NCBI GenBank assembly: GCA_050010515.1
Contig: JBEKKX010000051.1
Coordinates: forward strand, 1 to 14,657
DNA from: Candidatus Bathyarchaeia archaeon
Lineage (GTDB): Archaea; Thermoproteota; Bathyarchaeia; Bathyarchaeales; Bathycorpusculaceae
Reading direction: 5' to 3'
Length of the DNA: 14,657 nt
Below are positions 1-14,657 of the stretch, piece by piece. The position numbers and the translations under genes are program-made. Each line of letters opens with the position of its first letter. Position 1 is the first letter of the stretch. The notes beneath the pieces are model-generated. The model was not told the origin of the DNA and did no database searches. It worked only from the letters and a program-made list of their open reading frames with translations.

Positions 1-77
1 GTAAATTCTACCGTTCAATTGGCCAGGTCAATGCTGAAACAATCAAACGCTACATAGAACAATCTAAGCATCCATAA
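1..77 (+). CDS. tnpA: IS200/IS605-family Y1 (HUH) transposase TnpA, C-terminal fragment (5' part outside window)
   Basis: Frame from nt 3 reads KFYRSIGQVNAETIKRYIEQSKHP* (TAA 75-77). This matches the conserved TnpA C-terminus (y/f..svG.v..e.i.rYIe.Q) with the catalytic Tyr. Not in the supplied ORF track. Confidence 0.9.
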   Translation, partial: KFYRSIGQVNAETIKRYIEQSKHP

Positions 78-119
78 TTTTTCTGAAGATACCGCAACCG
101 TAAGGTTGCGGTCATTCAT
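1..119 (+). mobile_element. Right end of an IS200-type (tnpA-only) insertion sequence
   Basis: tnpA stop at 77, then hairpin ACCGCAACC-GTAA-GGTTGCGGT (91-112), then CATTCAT (probable TTCA/TCAT cleavage motif, ending about 118-119). There is no room for tnpB. Confidence 0.85.
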
Positions 120-1500
120 TTTGGTATTCTGCAAAGAATCCATCTTTGATTTTTTCCCATAAGCAGTTTATCAGGGTTCCGTCCATGCTGTTGGCTTTTT
201 CTTCTATCTTAGCACGTTGAAATGCCTTGGCGTTATCCGTGATTATGGTTCTTAAGTCAGGTTCGTATTCTGACAAGGCTAACATTGGTAATAATGTAGC
301 AATTAAACGGTGATCAGTTAAGTCGTCTATCCACTGTGACTTATCAATGTTAACGCTTTTGTAATAGATCATTCTGAGATAGATTAGCTTGTTCTGTAAT
401 TCGTAGCCTTCGTTAAGCATTTCGTCAGTTTCTAACACTGGGATTTTCTTGTCTGTAGCTTCACTATAGTAGGGTAAGGCCCTGCTCTCGGTTGCGTTGT
501 CATCAAACGGTTTACGCTGCGTACAGATTGTTATTCCGAAGTTTGCGAAGGTATCCGTGTATTTTGGGTTCTTTGGGTTTTGTCTGCTTACTGGTGTGCC
601 TGTAGCTCTACAGTTTAGGAAATGGATAAGTTCGCTTTTTTCGTTAGTGTTAGCGAAATCTGCCTCATCCAATACTAAAGTGCCTTGCCAAATGTCTAAT
701 GGTCTGTATAGGCTCGGTATTCTGTAGGTGCTCATTTCAAAATAGGGTCTATAACTGATTAATCGTAGAATGAAGGCTAGTCGGTTCTTTCCAGTTTGGC
801 TAGGTCCACGAATCGGGATAATAGGCGCGAATTTTCCAGCTCCAGCTATATCGTATTTTGGGTCTTTAACGAATCTATCAAGGAACCATGAACCAACAGT
901 AACACGTGTTAGCAAAGTAACTATGTTCTCTTGACCGCATGCATCATAAGCAGTTGAAGCTAACTTGTCTATGTCCTCAAATACTTCTTTAAAGCTAGTT
1001 TGTGTATAACCTGAAGGCACAATAACTAAGCCTTTCTTTAACGCTTCATTGTTTATAGGCACGTAAACTATGTTTTGCCCTTTCTTGTTTGTTTCACCTA
1101 ACCCGATTTCTTCCACGGTGTCGAAGGCTTTAGATGCAAAATTATATCTCAAGTATTGAGGATTTGCTTCTCTGTTCCATATTTCTTCAGCTATAAAATC
1201 AGCTGTTACGATTGAGGCTCGCTGAATGAATACATCTTTTTCTTCTTTCTCTCCGTCTTGCTCTGCCTTTATTCTTGCTGCATCGGCTAAGTCTTTTGCT
1301 GTCGGCTCAGTCATTTGGCTTTCTGATTTCTCGTTATTTTCTTGTTGTGATTCCTCTCTATGCTTTATGGGTTTAGCTGTTCTGTGTCCTTGCTCACAAG
1401 CATACCATTGTTGCTGGATATCATCTTTGTAACTCTCTATTACTGGGCCTTGGCAAGTTGGACATAATAAAATGATTTTTTCGGTGTCGGCGACGGTCAT
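112..1500 (-). CDS. Zn-ribbon plus P-loop NTPase, putative replicative helicase of the element; C-terminus probably truncated by the IS200 insertion
   Basis: Likely start is ATG 1500 (GAGGAG RBS, just after the stop of the upstream gene). N-terminal CPTC...CEQGH, Walker A GPSQTGKN, Walker B LVLDEAD. The context PSLYRPLD..GTLVLDEAD resembles helicases of mobile elements (DUF3631-associated type). The stop codon lies inside the IS right end. Confidence 0.75.
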   Translation of the reverse strand: MTVADTEKIILLCPTCQGPVIESYKDDIQQQWYACEQGHRTAKPIKHREESQQENNEKSESQMTEPTAKDLADAARIKAEQDGEKEEKDVFIQRASIVTADFIAEEIWNREANPQYLRYNFASKAFDTVEEIGLGETNKKGQNIVYVPINNEALKKGLVIVPSGYTQTSFKEVFEDIDKLASTAYDACGQENIVTLLTRVTVGSWFLDRFVKDPKYDIAGAGKFAPIIPIRGPSQTGKNRLAFILRLISYRPYFEMSTYRIPSLYRPLDIWQGTLVLDEADFANTNEKSELIHFLNCRATGTPVSRQNPKNPKYTDTFANFGITICTQRKPFDDNATESRALPYYSEATDKKIPVLETDEMLNEGYELQNKLIYLRMIYYKSVNIDKSQWIDDLTDHRLIATLLPMLALSEYEPDLRTIITDNAKAFQRAKIEEKANSMDGTLINCLWEKIKDGFFAEYQNE

Positions 1501-1504
1501 GGCT

Positions 1505-2389
1505 TCAGCTCTCCTCGTCAGGTGAATACGCATCATACCATTCTTCAAACTGTTCCTTCCATCGGTCAACGACTTCTTGACCGCGCCTCTGTTCTTCCAA
1601 CATTTCTATGAGTTTTTCTCTGTCAATGTATTTTCTGACGGCGTCTTGAATTAGAGTAATCATTCTGTCGGGTTCTATTGCTTCCAACTGAGTGTCTGGC
1701 AAATTCCACTCCCTTACTTGCTCATTGGTAAGAGCAACCCGAACAACTTCAGCGTCGACTTCAAAAAACTCAAAAGCATCTTGAATGTTCTTTGTCATGT
1801 TCCTGCCGTAGTCATCGGCGTCCGCGAAATGGAGAATTACTATTTTCCTACTAGTCTGTTTTAATCTCTGTGCAGACTCGTAAAAGTTACTCCATGAATT
1901 TCGTCCCCTGGTGAAATACAGCGTTACAGGATAGTTTTCCAAAGCCTTCTTGAACAGTGGTTGTAAGCCTTCATGCTCAGACCACACTTCAACTAGGTAT
2001 TCCTGATTTGTGTATTCGGGTTGATGATACCCAGATAAGCTATCTATGAAGTCCTTTGCCCAATATCTGATCCAATCTTCTGGCGTTAATTCCGTGTGAT
2101 ACTCTAACTTCGTTGGCTTTCTTGTTAGGTCAACAATTCTATCCCATTTTATCCATGCGTTTTTTCTGTGTTGGACAAGTTGCTTGTCCAGATATTGATA
2201 GTTGTTTTCCGTCTTGTCCAGCGAATATTTTCCTACTAGTCGATAAAAAATCTGTCTAATAGTAAGGGGTAGATCACCGTACTCTTTCAGTATTGCAGGA
2301 ATAGCGATTTCTATAATGTATGCCCATTTAGCCCCCAGTCCTTTTGGCCTTCCACTTTTACCCCTATGACGAATTTGAACTAGGTTCAT
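1505..2389 (-). CDS. Topoisomerase VI subunit A/Spo11-like protein (Mini-A type; 5Y-CAP plus Toprim)
   Basis: LTIRQIFYRL (catalytic-Tyr helix), WDRIVDLTR, Toprim Glu in VEVWSEH, DxD motif in ILHFADADDYG, and RVALTNEQVREWNLP / QLEAIEP motifs typical of this mobile-element family. Confidence 0.8.
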   Translation of the reverse strand: MNLVQIRHRGKSGRPKGLGAKWAYIIEIAIPAILKEYGDLPLTIRQIFYRLVGKYSLDKTENNYQYLDKQLVQHRKNAWIKWDRIVDLTRKPTKLEYHTELTPEDWIRYWAKDFIDSLSGYHQPEYTNQEYLVEVWSEHEGLQPLFKKALENYPVTLYFTRGRNSWSNFYESAQRLKQTSRKIVILHFADADDYGRNMTKNIQDAFEFFEVDAEVVRVALTNEQVREWNLPDTQLEAIEPDRMITLIQDAVRKYIDREKLIEMLEEQRRGQEVVDRWKEQFEEWYDAYSPDEES

Positions 2390-2613
2390 GGCTTGGGCTC
2401 CAGGTTAAGGTTTAGTGGGTCTTGCTTGGCTACGCTTGTGAATTTGCATATATCGCAAACTGTGATTTCTTGACGTAAAAGTGATGCTAAAGAGTTCTTG
2501 CTGATTAAGCCGATAAAATTCTTGTTTCCTTCATTGTCTAAAGTATAGACTTTGTAGGATCGCCCAGTGTTTGAAGGCATTACTAAGCCGGTAACGTAAA
2601 AGGTTCCTGGCAT
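2386..2613 (-). CDS. Hypothetical protein (75 aa)
   Basis: AGGTGA RBS upstream. ATGA overlap with the Mini-A start indicates translational coupling. Confidence 0.7.
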   Translation of the reverse strand: MPGTFYVTGLVMPSNTGRSYKVYTLDNEGNKNFIGLISKNSLASLLRQEITVCDICKFTSVAKQDPLNLNLEPKP

Positions 2614-2786
2614 GGTAGTTCTTCACCTATTATTTTTTTTGCGGTTGCAAACTGTTTGATTTGCTCAATTATGGCAAAACGATAAAATCCCGATATGCTT
2701 AACCCTAACTGCTTCCGTATTGCTTCAGCTTTTGCGTCTAGTTCGTTTGGCATCCAGATTACGCGTCTTTTGCCTTTTTCGGTCAT
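2583..2786 (-). CDS. Ribbon-helix-helix (CopG/Arc-like) DNA-binding protein
   Basis: KRRVIWMP (strand), NELDAKAEAIRKQLG (helix), LSISGFYRFAIIEQI (helix): classic RHH pattern. First gene of the leftward operon. Confidence 0.75.
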   Translation of the reverse strand: MTEKGKRRVIWMPNELDAKAEAIRKQLGLSISGFYRFAIIEQIKQFATAKKIIGEELPCQEPFTLPA

Positions 2787-2886
2787 AACATCATACCTAT
2801 GTAATTGACTTCTTAGTTATATATTCATAGGTTATTCAAAACTTATAAATACTTGCGTGTGTAGTTAAATACATAGATGAAAAACC
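2787..2886. promoter_or_regulatory. Divergent archaeal promoter region
   Basis: Plus-strand TATA-like TTATAAAT at 2843-2850, preceded by a purine run. Minus-strand ATATATAA at 2824-2817, about 30 nt before the RHH ATG. Confidence 0.55.
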
Positions 2887-3750
2887 GTGATAAAAAGAGG
2901 CATAGGCGCGGATCAAATAAAAAAATCCGAGTTATCAACACAAAAAATATTAGCAGTTCTAAAAGACGGTGCCTGGCATCGTTACATGGAGATTCTGAAA
3001 GAAACCAAAATCAGCCCTACAACATTAACCAAAAGACTTAAAGAATTAGAAAAAGGCATAGTGGAAAGAAAACTTGATACTGAAGGCAAAGAATATCCTC
3101 CTCCAGTGGCATATAGAATTAGGAACTCTGAATTAGCCTCAAGCATTGAAAAGGAAATAGAACAAGCTAAAAAAGTCGCTTCTCTGATATCTAAAAATAG
3201 AAATGTCACTTATTCAGCAATAGCCTATTTCCTTAAAACCGCGCAATTAAATTTTAACATACACTTACTTCTTAACTTACAGTTGTTTTTCTGGAAGGCT
3301 AAAAACGAAGGTGATCCGCGAACTGAAGAAGAAACAAAAGCATCCAGGGAAAATGCCTACACACAATATTTAGAGAGCCTAATAATGCCTAATTTTACAA
3401 ATTGGCTTAGCATACTTAAAGAAAAACTTGAGGATTTAGAAAAACAAGGGGTTAATGTTACAACTTTGTTAAGGGACGCAAACATTCAAGTAATGAAGGA
3501 TGGTCTTCCAGAATTTGGAATAATAGTGAAATTTCCCGAAAAAGACGTATGTACGCATGACGCGTCTGTGTCGGCTAAGTTCTCAGAGGAACTTCAAAAA
3601 CGGAAGGAAATTGACGCTAAAATTTTTGCGGTAATGTGTGATGGAAAACCACATACTGACGAGGAAATCAGCGAAAAAACTAAGCTGCCGGCTACCGAAA
3701 TATCGAGTTATTTTTCTCGTAGCAAAAAAGAAGCTGAGAAGGTGAGCTAA
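2887..3750 (+). CDS. Winged-helix transcriptional regulator (HxlR/ArsR-like N-terminal wHTH, probable second HTH at the C-terminus)
   Basis: KILAVLKDGAWHRYMEILKETKISPTTLTKRLKELEKGIVERK...VAYRI is a wHTH. C-terminal KIFAVMCDGKPHTDEEISEKTKLPATEISSYF resembles it. Confidence 0.75.
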   Translation: MIKRGIGADQIKKSELSTQKILAVLKDGAWHRYMEILKETKISPTTLTKRLKELEKGIVERKLDTEGKEYPPPVAYRIRNSELASSIEKEIEQAKKVASLISKNRNVTYSAIAYFLKTAQLNFNIHLLLNLQLFFWKAKNEGDPRTEEETKASRENAYTQYLESLIMPNFTNWLSILKEKLEDLEKQGVNVTTLLRDANIQVMKDGLPEFGIIVKFPEKDVCTHDASVSAKFSEELQKRKEIDAKIFAVMCDGKPHTDEEISEKTKLPATEISSYFSRSKKEAEKVS

Positions 3751-3753
3751 AAA

Positions 3754-4149
3754 ATGGTTGACCCTAACGTTATCGGTGCTTTTTTAGTTGTGGTCGTTGT
3801 TGGAATAATCGCTCTCTACGCGTGGTCGGACCTTAAAAAAAGACCTCAGTATTCAACAAGTTATCCCCCAAAACATGAACTCTCAGGGCAAAAATGCGAA
3901 AACTGTGGTGGCACTACTGAAAGATTAGACGCTGAAAAAATACGCTGCCAATATTGTGGCCGAGTTTTTGATAAACCCTTACCTGAGAAACCAGTAACCG
4001 TTAGGGAAACTCAAGAAGAAAGAAAACAAGAGAACAAACAAAAGCGCATAATTTGGGAATATGACCCGATAGAATATGAGTATGCCTCTAAAGACCCCTT
4101 ACTTGACTTCGCTGAAGATGCAAATAAGACACAAGAGAATGAGTATTAA
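3754..4149 (+). CDS. Membrane-anchored zinc-ribbon protein
   Basis: N-terminal hydrophobic helix VIGAFLVVVVVGIIALYAW, then CENCGG...CQYCG. AGGTGA RBS upstream. Confidence 0.75.
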   Translation: MVDPNVIGAFLVVVVVGIIALYAWSDLKKRPQYSTSYPPKHELSGQKCENCGGTTERLDAEKIRCQYCGRVFDKPLPEKPVTVRETQEERKQENKQKRIIWEYDPIEYEYASKDPLLDFAEDANKTQENEY

Positions 4150-4343
4150 CTAGGTGCTTCTAGTAAAGCCCAAAAAATAACTTTCTCTGATACCCTGCTT
4201 GGAACTGCTCCGCTATTAATTACTCTCCAACCTTCTTTCGCATGTTTGTTAAGTAAATCATTCCATATTCCAGTTTCTTTATCATGTAAAGGCTGTACGA
4301 TGTCATTGAAACTAAAAGTTTTTAGAATTGTCAAATATTTCAT
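4146..4343 (-). CDS. DUF4177-like small protein (65 aa)
   Basis: Start ATG 4343 with AGGAG RBS. MKYLTI...LLNKHAKEGWRVIN...IFWALLEAP matches the 'LN..g.eGW.lv' signature. Confidence 0.65.
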   Translation of the reverse strand: MKYLTILKTFSFNDIVQPLHDKETGIWNDLLNKHAKEGWRVINSGAVPSRVSEKVIFWALLEAPS

Positions 4344-4489
4344 AGTTCTCTCCTTCCACTTTGTTTTAAGTCTATTCGGTAAATTAAACATATCTTTAAA
4401 CAAGAAGTTAAAAGACTATTTCTTAGAGTTTGACTTGTGCGATAAGGTTAAGGTTGTAGAGAGTGGTTTATCGAGGGGTAATTGGTGCT

Positions 4490-4830
4490 ATGGCTGTTGA
4501 TAGTCCAAAATATACAAAAAATGCGATTGAGCACATACCGACATATATAGATAAGTAATTAAAAGAAGGATAAAAAAAGCTCCGATTGTTTGTTAACTAT
4601 GTTAATTCACTCTTAGACATGAAAGAAGGAATTGGAAATATTAACTAACCATACCTTTTAGTTGTGGATTCGCATTAAGTTATAGTTGCCACACAGCGTG
4701 ATAGCTGTAGAACGCAAATCGAAAACTGGGAGAGAACCAAAGAGGTTAAATACTTACGTAAACATACGGAAATTGTGCAATTGCTGTCATTGATGCATAA
4801 TTCATAAGAGATATAGCCAAAATGGGAATA
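4490..4830 (+). pseudogene. Possible decayed ORF
   Basis: ATG 4490 after a GAGGGG RBS-like tract. The frame reads protein-like (MAVDSPKYTKNAIEHIPTYIDK*LKEG*KKLRLFVNYVNSLLDMKEG...) but has several in-frame stops. No homolog recognised. Confidence 0.25.
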
Positions 4831-4851
4831 AGACAGTATAATAAGACAGTA
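4827..4851 (+). repeat. Tandem 12-bp direct repeat AATAAGACAGTA x2 (13-bp period)
   Basis: Copies at 4827-4838 and 4840-4851. Confidence 0.8.
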
Positions 4852-4902
4852 CACACGTATGTAGGAGATTACGTTTACAGAGAGTTAGGAGAGATATAAG
4901 AA

Positions 4903-5157
4903 ATGACTGAAATATTATCCATAAAAAACATGCCTGTTAGTTGTAAGATTTTCTTGCTTCAAGAACTTGGTTTTAGCTCAGATGGAACTTTTGTTTTAGA
5001 TAAAAAAGGCGAAAGAGTGTTAGATAAATACACGAATGAGCCTGTCCGACTTGCGAATATGGCAATACTACCTGGAAGTACTATAATATTGGACGATAAT
5101 CCTTTGAGTATCGCCTCGTTCTTGGAAGAATATGGAGATGTCATCCGATCCAGTTGA
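4903..5157 (+). CDS. Hypothetical protein (84 aa)
   Basis: AGGAG RBS, protein-like composition, overlaps the next gene. Confidence 0.75.
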   Translation: MTEILSIKNMPVSCKIFLLQELGFSSDGTFVLDKKGERVLDKYTNEPVRLANMAILPGSTIILDDNPLSIASFLEEYGDVIRSS

Positions 5158-5809
5158 AAGTGCAGCTAAAGGCGTAGCGGAAGCTTTTCTTGATTGGGCA
5201 CCAGAAAAAATAAAAGAATACGTCCAGAAATTCAGACATAAAGACCTTGCTTTTGTTCAAGATGTTGAGACAATCGAGGAAGCGCTAAAGCAGAGAAAGA
5301 CTACTGAATGTGCTATTTTTAAGCAAAATATTGAAGACGAAAACCTGCGTATTTGTTTTCTATTGGGATTAACTTTACGAGGAATGGAGAGCGATAAGGA
5401 AAAGTGCATAAACCTAAGAAACAGGATACTTAAGACACATGGCGCTTATGGATTACACGTAGCCCAGTTTGTTCAAAACGGTATTTTTGCAAAATTTATT
5501 GGTCGCTATTTAGAAGAGGCATTAACTCCAAACCAAATGAAACAAGAAATCGAAAACTTATTTAAAAATATTGAACTAACAAATAGTTTTATCCAATACG
5601 TCGATGACATAGGCATGGAAGCCAATAAGATAGTAACCAGAATCCAAAGTCATGCGCCTAAAACGTACGTAATTAGTGGATTAGGCTCAGTTAAGGAAAA
5701 CTGTCGAGAAATTGCTGACGAAGTTATGTATCGAATTTCTGGGTATTCCCGCGAAACTTACGAAACAGAATTGAAAATAATAATTTTCTTAAATAGAATT
5801 GAGAGTTAA
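5132..5809 (+). CDS. Hypothetical protein (225 aa)
   Basis: Long ORF coupled to the 84-aa gene and followed by a T-rich tract. No motif recognised. Confidence 0.8.
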   Translation: MEMSSDPVESAAKGVAEAFLDWAPEKIKEYVQKFRHKDLAFVQDVETIEEALKQRKTTECAIFKQNIEDENLRICFLLGLTLRGMESDKEKCINLRNRILKTHGAYGLHVAQFVQNGIFAKFIGRYLEEALTPNQMKQEIENLFKNIELTNSFIQYVDDIGMEANKIVTRIQSHAPKTYVISGLGSVKENCREIADEVMYRISGYSRETYETELKIIIFLNRIES

Positions 5810-5812
5810 AAA

Positions 5813-5825
5813 TCTTTTTTTCTTG
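5813..5825 (+). terminator. Oligo-T archaeal terminator candidate
   Basis: TCTTTTTTTCTT directly after the stop at 5809, between convergent genes. Confidence 0.4.
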
Positions 5826-5852
5826 ATTAAGCCTTTCGCTCTCCCCAAAAAC

Positions 5853-6608
5853 TTAGCTTATGGCTGCTCGCATTTTCTTAGCAAGGTTAGAGGCTCCCAG
5901 CCTTGAGTAGTGTAAAGCTGTGTTATAATCCAACCATCCAAAATATTCCATCAAGTCGGCTTCAGTAAAACCATAATCGCTTCTAAGTTCGCTTGCTCTC
6001 TGTGCTCTAAACCAATGCTGCCACAAGTGGATTATATCGCTAAGTTTGTCACCTGTTATTTTATCCCTGAAAGGCTGATTTAATCCTAGCTTGTTGAAAA
6101 GGGGTTTAGGTATTTCGTCATTCAAGCGCCTTATGAATTTATAGCCCCAACTTACAGTTAACGGTTTATGTCCTTTGTATGGGCTTGTGAAAAGTGGGCC
6201 TTTATCTAGAGAATCCAGTTGTTCTTGTAACAAGTTAGTTAAGGGTTCTTCTAGTAGAATTGGAAAAGGTTTTCGGATTGCGTTTATAGTTTCTGTATCT
6301 CGTTTGCCATTGAGTAAGAGTAAAGCCTTCTTTGTAATTGGATCTCGCTTAGTTCGATAACGTTTTTCTAAAAGCATATTTTGGCATAGCAATATTTTTT
6401 GGTGTTTGTTTACGCTAAAGTTTTCTCTAGTAAGATTAAGAACCTCTCCAGCTCTGCCTCCAGTTTTGATTAAGCTGTTTGTATAAAGTTCGTTGCGTGG
6501 TGTTCCGCTATATTTTATTAATTCTTCTATCGGTTCCCAACCGCAAAACTCATTGACATAATCGTAAACGTTTAGTCTATGATAACTTGTTAACGGTTGA
6601 ACTAGCAT
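5853..6608 (-). CDS. Tyrosine recombinase/integrase (essentially the catalytic domain only, 251 aa)
   Basis: TGGRAGEVL (Arg I), LEKR (Lys), HWFRAQRAS (HxxR), YFGW (H/W), TALHYSRL (catalytic Tyr). GGTGA RBS upstream of ATG 6608. Confidence 0.9.
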   Translation of the reverse strand: MLVQPLTSYHRLNVYDYVNEFCGWEPIEELIKYSGTPRNELYTNSLIKTGGRAGEVLNLTRENFSVNKHQKILLCQNMLLEKRYRTKRDPITKKALLLLNGKRDTETINAIRKPFPILLEEPLTNLLQEQLDSLDKGPLFTSPYKGHKPLTVSWGYKFIRRLNDEIPKPLFNKLGLNQPFRDKITGDKLSDIIHLWQHWFRAQRASELRSDYGFTEADLMEYFGWLDYNTALHYSRLGASNLAKKMRAAIS

Positions 6609-6665
6609 GGAAAAACGTCACCACTTTTTAACTCGTTTAGACTAGGTTTAGCGCTCACATTTTGC

Positions 6666-7742
6666 TTAGTCAATTTTGACATCTCCATATTTCTCTTTTA
6701 GAGCCTTGACTTTTTCGGCTTGTTGCTCTGGAGTGCGTGTTTGCATAATTATCTTGAGAGTTTCAAAACCTAAATCGGTTAAGTCATAACAGTAAGCGCT
6801 TGAGGTTCCAGGTTTCTTAGCTGGAGTTACTAGACTTCTCGATTTAGATTTCTTTAGAACTTCTAAGAGCTCAGGGTGTTTAAGGTGAATCCAATTTTTA
6901 TCAAGTGGGCCTCTAATTTGTATGAGGTCTAAAAATTCTATGTCTATTGGTTCTGAGCGCTTTATTATTTTTGCGCTTTCGTTATCAACCATACAATCTT
7001 TCATCATTTGCTTTAGTTCCTCAACTAATAGCAAACGGTTTTCGTCATATTCCTTGTAAACATCCATTGGAACCATATCAAACGTGAATGAATCTTGCCA
7101 TTTCTTTTTTGTTCTCGGAGCCCATGATCTAAAACTTTGTTCCCAATCACACTTATCATATTTTGCTAATCCCTTTGTTGGCACAAAAATTTCGCCAGTG
7201 TATTTGTCGGTTAACTGTTGGGTAATACTGTTTGCGGTGCCCATACTTGAAAGGAAAACACCGAAAGAAGTCGCTAAAGTGTCAATCATTCCTTTGAAAA
7301 TATCCATCGCGCTTGTGTGCTGGGTCACAGCTTTATTGAATCCAGCGCCAAAATCATCCGGCATAATTAGGGGTACTCGGTTATGAAGTAAGTTTCGTGT
7401 CCATATTCGGCAAGGAACACCATGATCCATATGATAAAGAATTTGGGAAAGGTTGTAAATGAAACTTTGTAAAACAGCATCCCAATCGCCATAAACCGCA
7501 AAGGCTATGTCCATTTGAACTGTCGTTTTTCCAGTTCTCGGTTTTCCGTGGATACAAATATTTTCCCAGCTATCCCCTAAAATAGCATCCCAAACGTCAA
7601 TAACTACTCTGGGAGCTGGGAGTTTTTCTTGAGCCTTTGCGCTGTGTGGATTTTCTTCTATTGCCTTATCAATTTCTTTAGCTGTCGCTATCCATTGTTC
7701 TGCTTGCGCTATGTTTATTCGATTATCTATTGATTCAATCAT
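6666..7742 (-). CDS. P-loop ATPase resembling fusellovirus SSV1 B251 / pSSVx ORF288, with C-terminal wHTH-like extension
   Basis: ICIHGKPRTGKTT (Walker A) followed by AVYGDW, and Walker B PLIMPDDFG, as I recall for the B251 family. C-terminal YCYDLTDLGFETLK is a wHTH wing signature. Confidence 0.7.
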   Translation of the reverse strand: MIESIDNRINIAQAEQWIATAKEIDKAIEENPHSAKAQEKLPAPRVVIDVWDAILGDSWENICIHGKPRTGKTTVQMDIAFAVYGDWDAVLQSFIYNLSQILYHMDHGVPCRIWTRNLLHNRVPLIMPDDFGAGFNKAVTQHTSAMDIFKGMIDTLATSFGVFLSSMGTANSITQQLTDKYTGEIFVPTKGLAKYDKCDWEQSFRSWAPRTKKKWQDSFTFDMVPMDVYKEYDENRLLLVEELKQMMKDCMVDNESAKIIKRSEPIDIEFLDLIQIRGPLDKNWIHLKHPELLEVLKKSKSRSLVTPAKKPGTSSAYCYDLTDLGFETLKIIMQTRTPEQQAEKVKALKEKYGDVKID

Positions 7743-8158
7743 TTCGGTTTATTTCCTAAATGTCCATCGGCTCCATAAGCTGGCTTTCCCATGTTTAAGT
7801 GGACTTCTAAAATATTTGGCCATATCCATGCGTATGCGGTTTCATAAACGCTATCAAGGGCAGTAAATACTTGTCTTTGAGTAACACCATCAGTCAATAT
7901 TAAATCAACGTAAATTTCTTCCCATGGAAAACCTTTTAGTCGTGGTTCTTTAGAAATCATGTATTCTTTGCCTTTTGGTGGCAAATAATCAATTAGGGCT
8001 TTTAAAGCGTAAAAAGACTCTCTCATAACACCTCTTCCATTGTATCGTTTCCCTGAAATGAATTGGTATCTTAAGCATAATTGGTTTAACGAATTAGCAT
8101 AGTTATTACTGTACGGTGCATCTAAATCGTAATTCGCTATTTTATCTTCCATGCTCAT
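7739..8158 (-). CDS. Hypothetical protein (139 aa), coupled to the ATPase
   Basis: AGGTGA RBS and ATGA overlap with the ATPase start. Confidence 0.8.
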   Translation of the reverse strand: MSMEDKIANYDLDAPYSNNYANSLNQLCLRYQFISGKRYNGRGVMRESFYALKALIDYLPPKGKEYMISKEPRLKGFPWEEIYVDLILTDGVTQRQVFTALDSVYETAYAWIWPNILEVHLNMGKPAYGADGHLGNKPK

Positions 8159-8175
8159 TGTTTTTTTTCACCTTC

Positions 8176-8286
8176 CTAACTTAAGATTCCTTTGTAGATT
8201 GTTTTGCTCATTTCCTCTAGCTTTTTTGCTTGGTCGTTGTGGTCTTGGACTTGGTTTGGTTGATTCTGATTTTTCTTTCTCGTCAT
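8176..8286 (-). CDS. Small protein (36 aa) MTRKKNQNQPNQVQDHNDQAKKLEEMSKTIYKGILS
   Basis: GGAGG RBS at 8301-8297. Fills the gap in the operon. Not in the ORF track. Confidence 0.6.
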   Translation of the reverse strand: MTRKKNQNQPNQVQDHNDQAKKLEEMSKTIYKGILS

Positions 8287-8301
8287 TGACTTATCGCCTC
8301 C

Positions 8302-8427
8302 TTAAATAAGATCATCCATTATTATCGAATAATAAACAAGATCGGCGAAGGGGTCGCAAAAGTCTAACATCGCGTCACCATTTCGTTTTTTTGGATTCTG
8401 CTTTTTCTTTCTCTTTCCCATTTTCAT
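8302..8427 (-). CDS. Small protein with basic N-terminus and acidic/aromatic C-terminus (about 41 aa)
   Basis: MKMGKRKKKQNPKKRNGDAMLDFCDPFADLVYYSIIMDDLI. The GAGGT RBS favours a start at 8427 or 8421 over the track's 8502. Confidence 0.6.
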   Translation of the reverse strand: MKMGKRKKKQNPKKRNGDAMLDFCDPFADLVYYSIIMDDLI

Positions 8428-8434
8428 AACCTCA

Positions 8435-8641
8435 TTAATTGCTAAATAGTCGGGGAGGCTCAAAATATGTCCAGAGCGCTGGATTCCAGTCGCGTGGTTC
8501 ACTTTTCAATGCGTGGCTCTCCAGCCAATCACGTTTGAGCTCGCGTTTATTTCCTTCAGAAAAATATGTTAAATAATTATGGTCTGGCTCTGAGTCTGGG
8601 CAAGGCTCCAGTTTCTTTTTTTTCCTACCGTTATAACCCAT
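8435..8641 (-). CDS. Small basic hypothetical protein (68 aa)
   Basis: TAATG overlap with the upstream Zn-finger ORF; part of a tightly packed operon. Confidence 0.65.
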   Translation of the reverse strand: MGYNGRKKKKLEPCPDSEPDHNYLTYFSEGNKRELKRDWLESHALKSEPRDWNPALWTYFEPPRLFSN

Positions 8642-8814
8642 TATTCAACATCATCCTTTGAAACAATAAATAAACTGTCAAAGCATTTTTGATGCCATCT
8701 TCGCGTTCCACGTGTCACATGCGGTTCAAATAAATTTGAGTTTTCTATTTTCTTAACTTCAAAACCGCACACTTGGCAAGGCCCATATTTCTTATGTGTT
8801 CCAGGGTAGCCCAT
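8641..8814 (-). CDS. Small zinc-finger protein (57 aa, CxxC...HxxC)
   Basis: MGYPGTHKKYGPCQVCGFEVKKIENSNLFEPHVTRGTRRWHQKCFDSLFIVSKDDVE. ATG abuts the upstream stop and the stop overlaps the next ATG. Not in the ORF track. Confidence 0.75.
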   Translation of the reverse strand: MGYPGTHKKYGPCQVCGFEVKKIENSNLFEPHVTRGTRRWHQKCFDSLFIVSKDDVE

Positions 8815-9000
8815 TTAAACCACATACGCTCCTGGGTCACGTTTAGATTCTAAATCAAGAGAAGTTTGAATCCGCGCAAAGATTAAGTCTTTTTCCGAAC
8901 ATCTTTTCCCGTTCCTGTGAAAGACATATTTTTTTCGGTGTTTTTGAACCACTTTTTGCGGTTTTTCTTTAGGTTTAAATCGCCTAAATCTTACGCTCAT
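8815..9000 (-). CDS. Small highly basic protein (61 aa)
   Basis: AAGGTGA RBS, K/R-rich, stop abuts the next ATG. Confidence 0.7.
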   Translation of the reverse strand: MSVRFRRFKPKEKPQKVVQKHRKKYVFHRNGKRCSEKDLIFARIQTSLDLESKRDPGAYVV

Positions 9001-9014
9001 TCTTTCACCTTATC

Positions 9015-9467
9015 TTAAAACCCAGGATCGTAAAAATCCTCAAAAGAGTAGTACTGGTGTTTTTTCTTTTTGTGTTTTTCGTGTTCTTCTTTAGCACGTG
9101 TGCTTATTTTTATGGTTTGGTGGTCGGTGTGGATTGTGGTAGTTTGGCTTTTGGGTTTAGGCTTTTTCGGTGTTAGCAACCAACTGTTAAAAGGGTCAAG
9201 GACGGGCTCAATTCTTGGAGTTCTGCCAGCAAATTCAGCGTAGCCTCTTACGCTTTTGCGATTTCTATTTGCGCTATAACTGTTGGATTCGCGCTGGGCT
9301 GTGTGTTTGCCATGTTCTCTTGCTAAACGTATTCTCTCTTCTACTCGCGCCTTCATTTCTTCTCTTTTTTCCGTTTGCCTTTGCTCTTTTCTTTCATGAT
9401 AGCTTTCTCGACTTTGCTTCATCTGTTTAGATATTTCTTGGCGTGCTTGATGTGGCACGTTTTTCAC
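9015..9467 (-). CDS. Basic, coiled-coil/disordered protein (150 aa from GTG; possibly 165 aa from ACG at 9512)
   Basis: K/R/E-rich ORF in the operon. The frame is open to 9539 and a GAGGT RBS lies 7 nt before an in-frame ACG. Confidence 0.7.
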   Translation of the reverse strand: MKNVPHQARQEISKQMKQSRESYHERKEQRQTEKREEMKARVEERIRLAREHGKHTAQRESNSYSANRNRKSVRGYAEFAGRTPRIEPVLDPFNSWLLTPKKPKPKSQTTTIHTDHQTIKISTRAKEEHEKHKKKKHQYYSFEDFYDPGF

Positions 9468-9517
9468 TCGTTCTTTAATTTTGTTTGATAAACTTTGCTT
9501 TTTCTCACTCGTTTTTA

Positions 9518-9625
9518 TTACCTCACTTTTGGATTTTTTTTAACAAATTCAACCATCTTATAAGATTGCGATCTATCTCTGAACCATAGACCGTTTTTGA
9601 CTGTTGACACTTGGCCTCTGTTCAT
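9518..9625 (-). CDS. Small protein (35 aa) MNRGQVSTVKNGLWFRDRSQSYKMVEFVKKNPKVR
   Basis: ATGA overlap with the upstream 29-aa ORF. Not in the ORF track. Confidence 0.5.
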   Translation of the reverse strand: MNRGQVSTVKNGLWFRDRSQSYKMVEFVKKNPKVR

Positions 9626-9711
9626 TTCTTTTTAGCCTTCTCTTTCTCTTTACGTTCTTCTTGTTTTTGAAGCCGCCAGTATTTTCTCATGCTGGGTGTT
9701 GACTTTGGCAT
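9622..9711 (-). CDS. Very small basic peptide (29 aa) MPKSTPSMRKYWRLQKQEERKEKEKAKKK
   Basis: First ATG downstream of an AT-rich TATA-like region (about 9743-9770). The stop overlaps the next ATG. Confidence 0.5.
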   Translation of the reverse strand: MPKSTPSMRKYWRLQKQEERKEKEKAKKK

Positions 9712-9800
9712 ATCTTATCTAAAATGTAGTTTTTACATGTTGCTTATTAATAGCGTATAATAATTATAAGAAAGTCTAAGAAAAAGTCTTAGAAAAACAT
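9712..9800 (-). promoter_or_regulatory. Promoter/operator region of the long leftward operon
   Basis: Minus-strand TATTAATA at about 9752-9745. Inverted repeats ATGTA-N5-TACAT (9724-9738) and TCTAAGA-N5-TCTTAGA (9775-9793). Confidence 0.5.
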
Positions 9801-9849
9801 AAAAAAAGTATAGTAACGAAAAAAAATTAGGGGTTGAACCCGAGGTTGC

Positions 9850-10227
9850 CTATCTTGAGTCTAGCACGCAGTCATAAGGTTCTTCATAGAAAATTGACCT
9901 GTCTAATATGTTTAAGATCAGGCCAGAGTTTATTTTCAGTGCTAGTAATCCTTCGTTGGTTAAGCGGTACATTTTTTTTTCAAGATGATTTTGTTCAGAG
10001 TTATCTTTTTTGTATGATATTAATTTTGATTCCGTTAGTCTCCATAAGCAACGGTAAACTGTTACATTGTTAACTGAGATGCCGAGTTTAAGTTTAATCT
10101 GTTTTTTCATTTCGTAACCGGTCATTGGCTTATGTCCAAGCATTATCATTTCGATTAACTCAATATTTCTTATGCATACCTTACGGTATGATTCTTTGTT
10201 GTTTGTTGCTAAAATATTTCTATTCAT
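9850..10227 (-). CDS. PadR-family winged-helix DNA-binding protein
   Basis: KPMTGYEMKKQI...ISVNNVTVYRCLWRLTESKLI...KKMYRLTNEG is a PadR signature. Start likely ATG 10227 (GAGGA RBS) rather than 10284. Confidence 0.85.
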   Translation of the reverse strand: MNRNILATNNKESYRKVCIRNIELIEMIMLGHKPMTGYEMKKQIKLKLGISVNNVTVYRCLWRLTESKLISYKKDNSEQNHLEKKMYRLTNEGLLALKINSGLILNILDRSIFYEEPYDCVLDSR

Positions 10228-10231
10228 TTTT

Positions 10232-10696
10232 TCAATCCTCTTTTTGGCGATATCTGTTAGTAATCTTTTTTGTTTTTGCTCCATGGCCTATTCGCGCTAT
10301 GTTTTGTCCAATTCTCCTTCCGTTAGGTCCTGATGTTCTGTCAACCCATACAGATTTGAAAAACTTATCAGCCCTATATTTTTCAGCATCGGCATCGCTT
10401 ATTTTTATTGTTGTAATTTCATCGACGCCCAAACGCCGATAAGCTTCAATTCTATGGTAGCCATCGTAAGGTGTAATTTTTCCATGTTCGTTATCGACTA
10501 TAACTGATGCCAATTTTTTACCAGACTTAATGTCTTCCATATATCTTTTGATTGTTGGTTCATTCAAGTTCCAGCTTGGTCTGGAAAAGTTGTTTATTCG
10601 TGACGTTGTTGGAAAACCATCTACTTCTATAAGTTCTTTGGTATATGGGTGAGTGAACACTCCACGCACAATTTTTATACTTTTTGATGTTTCCAT
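10232..10696 (-). CDS. ParB/Sulfiredoxin-like N-terminal domain protein
   Basis: IKRYMEDIKSG..LASVIVD...PYDGYHRIEAYRRLG (DGxHR box). AGGAGG RBS. Confidence 0.85.
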   Translation of the reverse strand: METSKSIKIVRGVFTHPYTKELIEVDGFPTTSRINNFSRPSWNLNEPTIKRYMEDIKSGKKLASVIVDNEHGKITPYDGYHRIEAYRRLGVDEITTIKISDADAEKYRADKFFKSVWVDRTSGPNGRRIGQNIARIGHGAKTKKITNRYRQKED

Positions 10697-10821
10697 TTTT
10701 CTTTTTCCTCCTTAGTTTCGTATGTGGTTATCATACAAGTGCATATATAAAATATCATATTAAGAAACAAACATAAAACTACATAAATACGTGGATAAGT
10801 CATATAGATGTGTGCAAAAAT

Positions 10822-10968
10822 ATGAACCCTGACATGCCTAAAAAACGAGTAACCATAAGCATAACACCTGAATGTTTAGCGTGGATTGACGGCCAAGTGC
10901 AAAAGCGAATCTATAAAGATCGTAGCCATGCCGTTGAAAAGTTGATTTATGATAAGATGCAACCATAA
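10822..10968 (+). CDS. Ribbon-helix-helix (CopG/Arc/MetJ-like) protein, 48 aa
   Basis: MNPDMPKKRVTISITPECLAWIDGQVQKRIYKDRSHAVEKLIYDKMQP: alternating strand VTISI, and RS.av helix start. Not in the ORF track; exact start uncertain. Confidence 0.85.
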   Translation: MNPDMPKKRVTISITPECLAWIDGQVQKRIYKDRSHAVEKLIYDKMQP

Positions 10969-10986
10969 TTTTATGTGATAAATTTT

Positions 10987-11190
10987 TCACTCAGAAACAG
11001 CTTTTTTAATCTCTTTTAAAACATCTATCAGCTTATTTGTTAGGTTATCGCATTTTTCAGGGTTTCTTTTCTGAAACCTCTTAAGACGATAACGATAACG
11101 CATTAAACTATTTTGCTCTTTCTTTTTAGTCGTGCTGCCGTCAATAAGCAAACTTGGCAGTTTACGCTTTACCCTTTCAGCGTCAACCAT
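10987..11190 (-). CDS. Small basic hypothetical protein (67 aa)
   Basis: ORF with GGAG upstream, convergent with the RHH gene. No motif. Confidence 0.5.
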   Translation of the reverse strand: MVDAERVKRKLPSLLIDGSTTKKKEQNSLMRYRYRLKRFQKRNPEKCDNLTNKLIDVLKEIKKAVSE

Positions 11191-11460
11191 GCTTAGAAGG
11201 CTCCAAAAAAAGAAAAAGGGAATTGTGCGCGGGAGATGTTAAGTGGTGACAGTTGATATAACTTTATTGCTAACTTGGTTAGCCTCCAAATCCAAAAATT
11301 TTAATTAACTGTCCTATTAACAATATCTGTAATGATAACTTTGTCAACTTTAAAAAACGCAATTTTTACATTAAATGGGAAATTTGATAGTTTTACTAGA
11401 AAAATATATCAAGGTATTTGACTATCTAATGAGAAAAACACATTTGGAGAAAAGGATTAT

Positions 11461-12024
11461 TTGAAAAACATGATTGAGTTCAGATGGCATGGTAGAGGCG
11501 GTCAAGGAGCATGGACAGCCAGCGAATTACTGGCAAGAACAGCCCTTGATGAAGGCAAATATATTCAATCATTCCCTGAATTTGGTCCTGAACGAATGGG
11601 CGCGCCAGTGACTGCCTTTACAAGAATAAGCACTGAACCAATAAGATTGCATTGCGCCATTTACGAACCAGATGTTGTTGTCGTTTTAGATAACACGCTG
11701 CTGAAAACAGTTCCAGTTACAGCTGGATTAAACGATGACGAAGACATACTAATTATTAATTCAACCGAGGAACCGGCTGCCCTAAAAGAAAGCCTTAGGG
11801 TGACAAAAGGCAAAGTGTGGACAGTTCCAGCAACCGAAATTGCCCTAAAAATTTTGGGAGCACCAATAACCAACACAGCAATGCTGGGCTGTGTCGCTAA
11901 GGCAACTGGAATAGTCACTTTAGAAGGCATAGAGAAAACGCTGAAGGGACGTTTCAGAACAGACTTAGCAGAGAAAAACTTCGCGATTATCAAGGAAGCG
12001 TATGAGGAGGCAAAATCCGAATGA
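11461..12024 (+). CDS. porC: Pyruvate/2-oxoacid:ferredoxin oxidoreductase gamma subunit (porC, also called porG)
   Basis: EFRWHGRGGQGA, SFPEFGPERMGAPV, NTAMLG motifs. Start TTG 11461 or ATG 11470. Confidence 0.95.
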   Translation: MKNMIEFRWHGRGGQGAWTASELLARTALDEGKYIQSFPEFGPERMGAPVTAFTRISTEPIRLHCAIYEPDVVVVLDNTLLKTVPVTAGLNDDEDILIINSTEEPAALKESLRVTKGKVWTVPATEIALKILGAPITNTAMLGCVAKATGIVTLEGIEKTLKGRFRTDLAEKNFAIIKEAYEEAKSE

Positions 12025-12302
12025 GTCGAGAGAAAAGCTGGAAAGAAATCTCTATAGCTGGAGTATGCTCAAAATCCAGCGTTGGATTCATGACAGGCGA
12101 CTGGAAAACTTACACGCCAATACGAGACCTGGAGAAATGTACAAAATGCTTAACATGCGTGATGTTTTGTCCTGAAGGAGCTATAAAGTGGCGTCCAGAG
12201 ATGGGCGACATCGAGTTTGACTTTAGCTTCTGCAAAGGCTGCGGAATATGCGCCAACGAGTGCCCAACTAAAGCAATAACAATGAAGATAGAAGGGGAGT
12301 AA
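12021..12302 (+). CDS. porD: Pyruvate/2-oxoacid:ferredoxin oxidoreductase delta subunit (2x[4Fe-4S])
   Basis: TGDWK..P, CTKCLTCVMFCPE and CKGCGICANECP. ATGA overlap with gamma. Confidence 0.95.
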   Translation: MSREKSWKEISIAGVCSKSSVGFMTGDWKTYTPIRDLEKCTKCLTCVMFCPEGAIKWRPEMGDIEFDFSFCKGCGICANECPTKAITMKIEGE

Positions 12303-12308
12303 AAGGAC

Positions 12309-13541
12309 ATGGAAAAACAAGCTAAACAGGAAACTATAGCTTTAAACGGAGATGAAGCAGTTGCATTCGCAGTTAAGCAATGTGATGTTGACGTAGTTGC
12401 AGCTTACCCAATTACGCCTCAAACAATCATTGTTGAAAAATTCAGCGAATACGTCGCCAACGGAGAGGTCCAAACAGAGTTTGTCTGCACGGAATCAGAG
12501 CATAGTGCGATGACCGCTTGCCTTGCTGCTTCAGCTACGGGTGCAAGAACTTTCACTGCCAGCGCTTCTGCAGGTTTAGCGTTGATGCATGAGATGCTTT
12601 TTGTTACGTCTGGTTGTCGAGCGCCAGTTGTGATGGCTATTGCTAACCGCGCTTTGTCTGCGCCGCTAAACATTCATGGTGACCAATCAGACAGCATGGC
12701 AGAAAGAGACAGCGGATGGATACACATTTACGTTGAGAACGCTCAGGAGGCATATGACTCTATTATTCAAGCGTTCAAGATTGCTGAGGATGTTGATGTG
12801 TCTTTGCCGATTATTGTTGGATTAGACGGGTTTACGGTAAGTCACACGTTGGAGAACGTCGATGTACTTTCTGAAGACGCGGTGAAGCAGTTTGTTGGAG
12901 AACGCCAACTGCCCAATGTACTTACGCATGAAGGTAAAACAGTGCCGTTTAAGCTTGATCCAGATAATCCGATGACTATGGGACCGATTGCTTTTCAAAA
13001 CTACTATTTTGAGTTTAAACGCCAGCAGGAAGAAGGCATGAAGAACGCGTTAAAGCGAATACAAGAGGTTAACACTGAATATGCCAAAGTCACTGGCAGA
13101 AGCTACGGCAACGGCCTAATAGATGCTTACAAGCTTGAGGACGCTGAAATTGCAGTGGTGTGCGTTGGCTCAACTTCTGGAACACTAAAAGTAATTGTTG
13201 ACGAATTAAGGCAAGAGGGCGTTAAAGCTGGGCTTCTACGACTACGTACGTTCAGGCCACTACCCGTCGAAGAACTTCGAAAAGCATTAAGCAACAGCAC
13301 TGCAGTTGCGGTTATGGATAAAAGTATGAGTTTCGGCGGTTTCGGCGGCGCAGTTTTCACTGAAGTTCGCCATGCGCTTTACGATGATAAGAAGCATCCG
13401 TTTATTGTGAACTACATTTACGGTTTAGGCGGGAGAGATTATAGTCCCCGTGAACTACGAACAATCTTCGAAGAGCTTACGAATATTGCAAGAACTAGAC
13501 ATGTTGAAAGCCAAATTCACTATTTAGGGTTAAGGGAGTAA
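12309..13541 (+). CDS. porA: Pyruvate/2-oxoacid:ferredoxin oxidoreductase alpha subunit
   Basis: GDEAVA, AAYPITPQT, ESEHSA, NRALSAPLNIHGDQSD, YGLGGRD motifs. Confidence 0.97.
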   Translation: MEKQAKQETIALNGDEAVAFAVKQCDVDVVAAYPITPQTIIVEKFSEYVANGEVQTEFVCTESEHSAMTACLAASATGARTFTASASAGLALMHEMLFVTSGCRAPVVMAIANRALSAPLNIHGDQSDSMAERDSGWIHIYVENAQEAYDSIIQAFKIAEDVDVSLPIIVGLDGFTVSHTLENVDVLSEDAVKQFVGERQLPNVLTHEGKTVPFKLDPDNPMTMGPIAFQNYYFEFKRQQEEGMKNALKRIQEVNTEYAKVTGRSYGNGLIDAYKLEDAEIAVVCVGSTSGTLKVIVDELRQEGVKAGLLRLRTFRPLPVEELRKALSNSTAVAVMDKSMSFGGFGGAVFTEVRHALYDDKKHPFIVNYIYGLGGRDYSPRELRTIFEELTNIARTRHVESQIHYLGLRE

Positions 13542-13559
13542 TTTAGGAGGAAAAACAAA

Positions 13560-14528: not shown

Positions 14529-14541
14529 ACTCCTTCTTTAT

Positions 14542-14657
14542 TAAAACTTGACGAGAATACTGCAACCGTTAGGTTGCAGATGAATCGGCAGTAGGTTCTT
14601 TTGCTAACTCGCTAAGTGTGTTTCCTAGACGGCAGGTTGCGTCTACCGTCTAGGAGG
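14542..14657 (+). mobile_element. Left end of an IS200-type element (same family as the right end at 1-119), running off the window
   Basis: Hairpin CTGCAACC-GTTA-GGTTGCAG (14560-14579) is near-identical to the right-end hairpin CCGCAACC-GTAA-GGTTGCGG, and ATA precedes the C in both. The window ends in AGGAGG (putative tnpA RBS). Exact cut site uncertain (14538-14553). Confidence 0.75.
14621..14657 (+). promoter_or_regulatory. Hairpin sequestering a putative tnpA Shine-Dalgarno sequence
   Basis: TCCTAGACGGCAG (14623-14635) pairs with CTACCGTCTAGGA (14643-14655) with one mismatch. The 3' arm overlaps AGGAGG. Confidence 0.6.

Follow-up and report, generated by a model that had tools for sequence, protein, structure and literature searches.

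A 14,657-nt contig of a Candidatus Bathyarchaeia archaeon (JBEKKX010000051.1, assembly GCA_050010515.1) poses the question of what an ATPase gene of fusellovirus type, with a small gene coupled to it upstream and an integrase gene downstream, is doing in DNA that carries no capsid gene. The contig, which is taken whole and called the window here, is contig C51 of the 66-contig, 2.38-Mb genome G000 (98.5% complete). We find that the ATPase belongs to the B251 family and has an additional, predicted winged helix, and that its gene lies in an element of about 13.6 kb that is inserted in the chromosome by its own integrase. We put at roughly 45% the probability that this element is an integrated, capsid-less plasmid-virus hybrid that acts through a helper-dependent mechanism like that of pSSVx and the haloarchaeal SRCE elements. 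Its anatomy, family assignments and borders, taken together, are much more secure, and we hold them with high confidence. The features on which the argument turns are as follows.

6666 to 7742, minus strand: B251-family P-loop ATPase of 358 aa with a C-terminal winged helix (PHROGs, hhalign, AlphaFold2 (AF2) model)
7739 to 8158, minus strand: helical partner protein of 139 aa, translationally coupled to the ATPase (ATGA overlap, family alignment, AF2 model)
5853 to 6608, minus strand: short tyrosine recombinase of 251 aa, third gene of the module (phrog_1 E 1.9e-9, phrog_216 E 1.8e-8)
11255 to 11267, plus strand: attachment site attR, 13-bp core GATATAACTTTAT (alignment of the flank to an empty site)
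G000 contig C9, 66568 to 66580, strand not given: attL, the same 13-bp core (direct repeat)
G000 contig C9, 46 nt from attL, strand not given: tyrosine integrase of 471 aa at the element edge (Pfam Phage_integrase and DUF7838; phrog_1 E 2.7e-16)
1 to 121, no strand: terminus of a multicopy repeat of about 0.57 kb resembling a miniature inverted-repeat transposable element (MITE) (identical 119-123 nt at 10 other G000 contig ends)
14537 to 14657, no strand: other terminus of the same repeat (recurs at 8 other G000 contig ends)

Relatives of the ATPase were collected by a word-indexed search of 5.8 billion proteins, in which 54 of 3150 candidates were accepted (alignment A1). All 54 are metagenomic proteins or come from metagenome-assembled genomes, and none has a Pfam domain. 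The motifs that the original prediction had picked out by eye are real, as the alignment conserves them: at 90% or more, G66, P68, R69, G71, K72 and T74 of the Walker A motif GKPRTGKTT, Y84, D86, W87 and D88 in and after VYGDW, and D129 and D130 of the Walker B motif MPDDFG, where G132 is invariant. A1 also conserves VYxDWD, an invariant NKAxTQH and, in the C-terminal domain, YDLTDxG. The P-loop nucleoside triphosphatase (NTPase) signature, GxxxxGK[ST] with hhhhDD, is present as GKPRTGKTT and LIMPDD. The protein matches phrog_5484 (E 1.1e-8, profile positions 19-234 of 239), a family labeled 'DnaA-like replication initiation protein' in PHROGs and likewise in RefSeq virus records. By hhalign, the A1 profile aligns with C250 of SSV Lassen, the B251 orthologue, with 97% probability (E 1.2e-10, 199 columns, residues 23-243 of 250) and with the 342-aa ATPase of Geoglobus ahangari pleomorphic virus 1 with 96% probability (E 2.9e-9). 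The B251 likeness proposed earlier is borne out by these profiles, at a sequence identity to the B251 type of only about 26% in the aligned part. A direct tblastn search brought up 24 weak matches (best E 1e-3) among 50,697 records of phages and archaeal viruses, none covering 80% of the query; most are Sulfolobus and Acidianus spindle, monocauda and bicauda viruses, guttaviruses and two archaeal pleomorphic viruses, and the remainder includes noise in the form of five Prevotella and one Lactobacillus phage rows at E 4-5.

The AF2 model of the ATPase (predicted local distance difference test score, pLDDT, 81.1; predicted TM-score 0.73) contains the C-terminal winged helix-turn-helix that had been read from the letters. 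Compared with BFVD, the model finds ORF286 of ATV first (E 7.2e-6) among five matches at E <= 1e-3, with low TM-scores (0.29/0.36), and the VIA-align rows for the whole model are taken up by the winged-helix domain; the ATPase core may be AAA+ initiator-like or pI/Zot-like. Pfam, NCBIfam and PADLOC return nothing for the protein, and phmmer and a profile search against PDB sequences gave chance-level rows, including RFC5 at E ~0.9 over the P-loop. From profiles and model together, the ATPase is a B251-family member with an added winged helix that is predicted to bind DNA. It resembles SSV1 B251 and its homologues in Guttaviridae, Bicaudaviridae, monocaudaviruses and archaeal pleomorphic viruses (PHROG 5484) in having a Walker A motif with GK[ST], a Walker B motif ending in DD and no predicted transmembrane segment, and it resembles fusellovirus B251 in a profile match over nearly the whole orthologue and in having a small upstream open reading frame (ORF) and a tyrosine integrase nearby. 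Unlike the window ATPase, fusellovirus B251 (~250 aa) is without the ~100 C-terminal residues that form the winged helix; the window ATPase further differs in its mesophilic archaeal host from peat and wetland and in a 45-residue N-terminal helix, which in A1 is confined to the 12 closest homologues.

A fused form of the family was also seen. At L032:9992-12703, L036:1024-3747 and L042:5852-8665, a B251-like ATPase is joined to a C-terminal ABC-ATPase-like and GNAT-like part, giving proteins of ~900-937 aa. Stand-alone homologues of that C-terminal part lie near two G000 contig ends (C29:29200-30492 and C32:27572-27811), and one of them adjoins a homologue of the window ORF at 10987-11190.

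The coupling of the 139-aa ORF to the ATPase gene, noted at the outset, is exact: the TGA stop of the partner and the ATG start of the ATPase share 4 nt as ATGA (minus strand ...AAACCGAAATGATTGAA...). Searched alone, this ORF returned a single relative from the word-indexed database. In related loci, the ORFs upstream of the ATPase make up a separate family (38 of 52 cluster by BLASTP; alignment A2), and the fit of the 139-aa ORF to that family was initially weak (hmmsearch E 1; hhalign E 0.0027 to 0.013). A HMMER scan of 1.84 billion representatives with a two-sequence profile then yielded 15 proteins at E <= 1e-3, aligned around the 139-aa protein as A5, and the link became significant only after this gain of 13 homologues: A5 aligns with A2 by hhalign at 95.6% (E 1.1e-8, 122 columns), and both have the same landmarks, ALxxLIxxLPPKG and a C-terminal KPxY..HLG tail. 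By these alignments, the 139-aa protein belongs to a conserved partner family of the ATPase. In its AF2 model (pLDDT 87.9), the helices form a bundle and the conserved tail is flexible; no structural relative reached significance. A hidden Markov model (HMM) of the merged family places the partner gene next to the ATPase gene in 32 of the 43 loci that have at least 350 nt on each side of the ATPase, 21 times upstream on the same strand and 11 times convergent just downstream; ten loci are without a partner and one has it 1.3 kb off. Several of the loci, among them L010-L018, are near-duplicates, and these are not 43 independent cases. Modeling of the ATPase with the partner (alignments A1 and A4) gave a median of 0.17 against a mark of 0.32, with scattered runs (0.46, 0.02 and 0.17), which speaks neither for nor against binding. 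Pfam, NCBIfam and PADLOC have nothing for the partner. In two archaeal pleomorphic viruses (L087:4977-6363 and L088:5035-6433), the first 8 nt of the homologous ATPase gene are shared with a 121-aa ORF, an arrangement that echoes the coupling seen here, with small proteins that are not detectably related.

The integrase gene said to lie downstream of the ATPase is there, 57 nt away, and encodes the 251-aa short tyrosine recombinase. It matches an HMM of ATPase-linked short integrases (family 5) at E 1.9e-12. Among the 63 loci with at least 900 nt of flank, 39 have an integrase-like ORF within 2.5 kb of the ATPase. Because of these adjacency counts and the integrase HMM match, we regard partner, ATPase and short recombinase as a recurrent module. 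Its layout is that of B150-C250-(C64)-integrase in SSV Lassen, and all three of its genes here are intact ORFs that retain their conserved motifs. The other window ORFs have no BLASTP homologue beside the ATPase in related loci.

Both ends of the window are copies of one repeat. A 575- or 576-nt Logan contig in each of four runs consists of window 14537-14657, then 334 other letters, then window 1-121, and it is covered 14-20 times as deeply as the element contigs of the four runs. This repeat, whose subterminal sequence GCAACCGTAAGGTTGC forms a hairpin, is MITE-like and too short to encode a transposase. It is behind many assembly breaks in G000, where it marks 18 contig ends besides those of the window. 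At the left end of the window it cuts ORF 112-1569 on the minus strand, a helicase-family gene, three codons before the apparent stop. Among the eight contig ends with a matching terminus, only that of C9 continues the frame with a plausible protein (~640 aa in total), and residues 460-590 of the 639-aa homologue P0076 are 43% identical to the C9 fragment (E 2e-28). On C9, the helicase remainder is followed by the 471-aa integrase and then a radical-SAM gene. The original prediction had allowed for structural genes on an adjoining contig, and that part of it fails, as the C9 piece up to the att site holds only the helicase remainder and the integrase.

The borders follow from comparison with relatives. 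At the empty site of genome G410, the C9 flank aligns to positions 1-229 and the window flank to 217-499, and the 13-nt overlap is GATATAACTTTAT, which occurs once at each element end. In sequencing run X8 there are relatives of much greater abundance, and the point at which they depart from the window lies immediately before 11255. About 20 of 40 other genomes of the same genus have the radical-SAM gene and the gamma gene of pyruvate:ferredoxin oxidoreductase (POR) on one contig, 190-460 bp apart at empty sites, and in seven genomes the gap is 0.7-18 kb. Because of the empty sites, the att overlap and the continuation on C9, the element is taken to comprise C9:66581-68460, the ~0.57-kb repeat and window ~122-11254, or ~13.6 kb, inserted between the radical-SAM gene and the POR operon. 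It shows a border integrase, direct-repeat att sites and an empty site in relatives, as a tyrosine-recombinase element does. The G+C content of the island, up to ~11.4 kb, is 34-40%, compared with ~45% in the POR operon at 11461-14528 and 42.6% in the genome. The large integrase makes the intergenic site between the radical-SAM and POR gamma genes a hot spot of integration. A tRNA-Asn gene on C9 was considered as the target site and rejected, since it does not adjoin the element and matches no repeat; the window itself has no tRNA gene and no Rfam family.

Two further insertions at this site carry cargo unrelated to that of the element described here. One, of 17.6 kb (G417:C8:75700-93900, L103), has the same 13-nt core and an 82%-identical integrase; the other, of 15.8 kb (G038:C2:70500-86500, L104), has an 85%-identical integrase.

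The host was expected not to be a member of the Sulfolobales, and the relatives agree: all four ATPase relatives on genome contigs are titled Bathyarchaeia, and the homologues of the element's helicase-family protein are named Bathyarchaeota, Bathyarchaeales or Bathycorpusculaceae by their sources. The ATPase gene is single copy in G000 and is carried by 10 of 401 genomes sampled from the class and by 2 of 39 other genomes of the genus, a patchy distribution of the kind expected of a mobile element. Half or more of the element's sampled words occur in at least 15 sequencing runs, of which 6 are possible sources, from peat and wetland metagenomes, and the element is nearly unchanged across those runs; no RNA run was listed among the holders. 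A k-mer scan of G000 for CRISPR arrays found none, only a single 3-copy repeat on C14.

No capsid gene is found in the window, as originally stated, nor in the reconstructed whole element. Among its called genes, none encodes a protein with two hydrophobic helices or with a layout of signal plus anchor, and a hydrophobic two-helix major capsid protein beside the ATPase, which is a mark of virus context rather than of the protein family, is absent from the complete element. Within 6 kb of the ATPase, the only called genes with hydrophobic segments encode the 131-aa protein at 3754-4149 (one transmembrane segment) and a 52-aa ORF on the opposite strand. Related loci L047, L008, L029, L032 and L034 have, beside the pair, runs of small proteins with two to four transmembrane segments and larger proteins with a signal/anchor layout or Ig domains, and these blocks are likely virion modules. 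At L047:6492-9298, seven consecutive small proteins (75-162 aa, two to four hydrophobic segments) are encoded directly upstream of the partner-ATPase pair, whose ATPase is 42% identical to that of the window. Further genes on the L047 contig, which looks like that of a virus, are those for DUF5131, a ParB-MT-A70 methylase, HNH and radical SAM. It is possible that its small proteins are spindle-virus capsid proteins and that this contig represents a helper type.

Elements of related make-up have been described. B251 and A154 are reported to be fusellovirus core genes that are also present in pSSVx (PMC9608457), and ATPase-bearing, plasmid-derived haloarchaeal SRCE elements have been proposed as satellites (bioRxiv 10.1101/2025.02.15.638363). 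According to the same preprint, the list of systems with archaeal virus satellites is very short: pSSVx and pSSVi, to which the haloarchaeal SRCEs were recently proposed as an addition. The Bathyarchaeia element shares with pSSVx (Saccharolobus islandicus) and with the SRCEs of haloarchaea and nanohaloarchaea, as these are described, a plasmid-type replication gene and a virus-type ATPase with no major capsid protein. Unlike them, it is integrated in the chromosome by means of its own 471-aa integrase and has a short recombinase in addition, and no helper is known for it; it is also larger than the reported SRCEs (13.6 kb vs 2.7-9 kb), and whereas pSSVx is described as having an A154 homologue, the partner here shows no detectable relationship to A154. 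From Bathyarchaeia themselves, a spindle-type provirus has been published, Huangdivirus (proposed Huangdiviridae), in which an AAA+ ATPase that matches the ATPase of ATV best adjoins an integrase (PMC10541130). By that published description, rather than by sequence, it resembles the element in host class and in its pair of tyrosine integrase and ATPase, but it is said to encode the structural proteins VP1-VP3, of which the element has none. In the pleolipovirus-like Geoglobus ahangari pleomorphic virus 1 and ThalV2, a 121-aa ORF (gp26) overlaps the start of the 342-aa homologous ATPase (gp25), as the partner does here; in those viruses, however, the pair lies downstream of VP3/VP4-like genes, which the element lacks, and gp26 is dissimilar to the partner (profile match to gp26 of the Geoglobus virus, E 0.54).

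Because a plasmid-type replication gene combined with a virus-type ATPase pair and no capsid is the make-up of pSSVx and the SRCEs, we favor the reading of the element as a plasmid-virus hybrid. What the original prediction offered was a satellite or part of an undescribed provirus; the capsid-less mixture of plasmid and virus genes like that of pSSVx stands, and the provirus completed by structural genes next door does not. The plasmid-like backbone consists of the 471-aa edge integrase, the primase-helicase-family NTPase, the Topo VI-A-like protein and the regulators, and the virus-type module of the 139-aa partner, the ATPase with its winged helix and the short recombinase. The element has two of the marks of a satellite type, a plasmid-type replication module and an ATPase present with capsid protein absent, and a satellite lifestyle appears to be the most likely function of the module. 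We propose that, after excision, the ATPase would recognize element DNA through its winged helix and, with its coupled partner, would deliver it to a related helper virus, spindle-type or pleomorphic, for assembly or extrusion by the machinery of that virus. With its helicase gene split by the 0.57-kb repeat, this copy may have lost the capacity to replicate alone. A broader proposal goes further: that this is an integrated Bathyarchaeia virus satellite, the first outside Sulfolobales and the haloarchaeal and nanohaloarchaeal systems, that the winged-helix ATPase and partner are a portable 'packaging ticket' for spindle-type or pleomorphic helpers of the same genus, and that the module is an exchangeable unit that has repeatedly turned plasmids into satellites. 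We consider this doubtful and offer it only as a conjecture.

Several observations weigh against a helper-dependent hybrid. No helper virus was found in G000, where the only ATPase copy is that of the element, although a binned genome would omit episomal viruses, and in IMG/VR none of 68 candidate stretches was a relative of the ATPase, the check for relatives there having come back empty. The partner model has no match in BFVD at E <= 1e-3 (best E 0.55), with no fusellovirus protein among the best 50 rows, and hhalign against B150 of SSV Lassen, the fusellovirus protein in the A154 position, gives E 0.27 with A2 and 0.79 with A5, so that homology of the 139-aa ORF to A154 finds no support. 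The module sits in loci of very different content, some of them apparently chromosomal or plasmid-like, and with its helicase gene broken the element may be inert. Lastly, an AAA-type core followed by a C-terminal winged helix is the layout of Orc1/Cdc6 initiators, and a replication or maintenance role would fit the ATPase equally well.

This last point leads to the possibility that the element is a plain integrative plasmid, in which the ATPase and partner would form a replication initiator or a maintenance or partition factor with Orc1/Cdc6- or DnaA-like logic and the short recombinase would resolve multimers, with no helper involved. Besides the initiator layout itself, Foldseek of the whole-length ATPase model against the PDB lists ORC/Cdc6 chains at E 4e-3 to 1e-2, in a search with no row at E <= 1e-3; the database label of the family as DnaA-like, the occurrence of the module both with and without membrane-protein blocks and the absence of a helper from G000 all point in the same direction. 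However, one replication gene, of the primase-helicase family, and a Topo VI-A-like gene are already present in the element, and the ATPase matched no initiator family: Pfam and NCBIfam are blank for it, there are weak P-loop matches only across the 54 members, and RFC5 was all that the PDB profile search gave. Similar layout apart, membership among Orc1/Cdc6 or DnaA initiators thus finds no support in the sequence. We regard such a plasmid as a genuine possibility, behind the helper-dependent hybrid. The element might also be a decaying composite: an unrelated integrative element would have taken up a virus-derived module of recombinase, ATPase and partner, or have come to contain it nested, and what is left would no longer function. 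This would explain why the element has two different tyrosine recombinases, why insertions of unrelated cargo at this site in G417 and G038 share its edge integrase and att core and why its helicase gene is split by the repeat. We find it improbable, given the intact module, the near-identity of the element in at least 15 runs and the lack of a third att copy inside the window (one match at up to two mismatches). That the element is an autonomous virus of a new kind, with structural proteins hidden among the unannotated small ORFs at 8302-9467, 2386-2786 and 4903-5809, gains something from the fact that about half of the element's ORFs have no family match and that archaeal virus structural proteins are often unrecognizable. 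It is very unlikely, since the complete element, unlike L047, L008, L029 and L034, encodes neither a small protein with two hydrophobic helices nor a spike-like signal/anchor protein, its small ORFs are basic and hydrophilic, and IMG/VR holds no relative.

The ATPase family, the concept of plasmid-virus hybrids and a Bathyarchaeia provirus with such an ATPase are already in print. What is new is a delimited capsid-less element in Bathyarchaeia, the winged-helix form of the ATPase, the partner family with its three-gene module and the integration site; in the literature on integrative elements and plasmids of Bathyarchaeia and on the satellites pSSVx and pSSVi, supplementary tables aside, we found no description of such a Bathyarchaeia element. 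B251-type ATPases may serve replication or morphogenesis. The present case offers a fully delimited capsid-less element in an abundant, uncultured lineage of sediment and peat, a version of the ATPase with its own predicted DNA-binding domain, and a newly defined partner family that stays beside the ATPase even when its orientation changes. Any DNA bound by the winged helix and a possible docking of the partner's conserved C-terminal tail on the ATPase are handles for experiment, and the trio of partner, ATPase and short recombinase could serve as a marker for finding further plasmid-virus hybrids in metagenomes.

The remaining genes of the element and its flank are the following.

112 to 1569, minus strand: primase-helicase-family NTPase with a Zn ribbon and P-loop, N-terminal ~482 residues (cut by the repeat; last ~158 residues on C9)
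1505 to 2389, minus strand: Topo VI-A-like 'DNA topoisomerase' protein, 294 aa (phrog_6247 E 1.7e-33)
2386 to 2786, minus strand: two small ORFs of 75 and 67 aa (no family match)
2887 to 3750, plus strand: 287-aa winged helix-turn-helix protein, regulator (Pfam HxlR E 5.2e-5, HTH_24 E 1.3e-4)
3754 to 4149, plus strand: 131-aa protein with one N-terminal transmembrane segment and a Zn ribbon (domain and transmembrane predictions)
5132 to 5809, plus strand: 225-aa protein (no family match)
8302 to 9467, minus strand: small, mostly basic ORFs of 66, 68, 57, 61 and 150 aa (one weak PHROG match, otherwise none)
9850 to 10284, minus strand: PadR-family winged helix-turn-helix regulator (Pfam PadR E 3.6e-11)
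10232 to 10696, minus strand: 154-aa protein weakly similar to the ParB-like nuclease domain (phrog_26754 E 1.6e-4)
10810 to 11190, both strands: two small ORFs at the right edge, 52 aa (plus) and 67 aa (minus) (ORF calls; C32 carries a homologue of the 67-aa ORF, 56% identical)
11461 to 14528, plus strand: host flank, POR gamma, delta, alpha and beta genes (Pfam POR, Fer4, POR_N, PFOR_II, TPP_enzyme_C)

The primase-helicase-family protein has 191 homologues and is common in Bathyarchaeia. Among the 120 homologues listed, eight have the Prim-Pol domain PF09250 and one has PriCT_1, and one of the Prim-Pol homologues is named 'bifunctional DNA primase/polymerase' by its source; in the protein encoded in the window, a Zn ribbon holds the N-terminal place that Prim-Pol has in some homologues. 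Over 196 aa, the 294-aa Topo VI-A-like protein shares 25% identity with a protein encoded chromosomally on C15. It probably belongs to the Topo mini-A type, a label we take from the literature, where Topo mini-A is described in archaeal mobile genetic elements (bioRxiv preprint). The protein is shorter than cellular Topo VI A, and its gene shares 65 nt with the start of the helicase-family gene.

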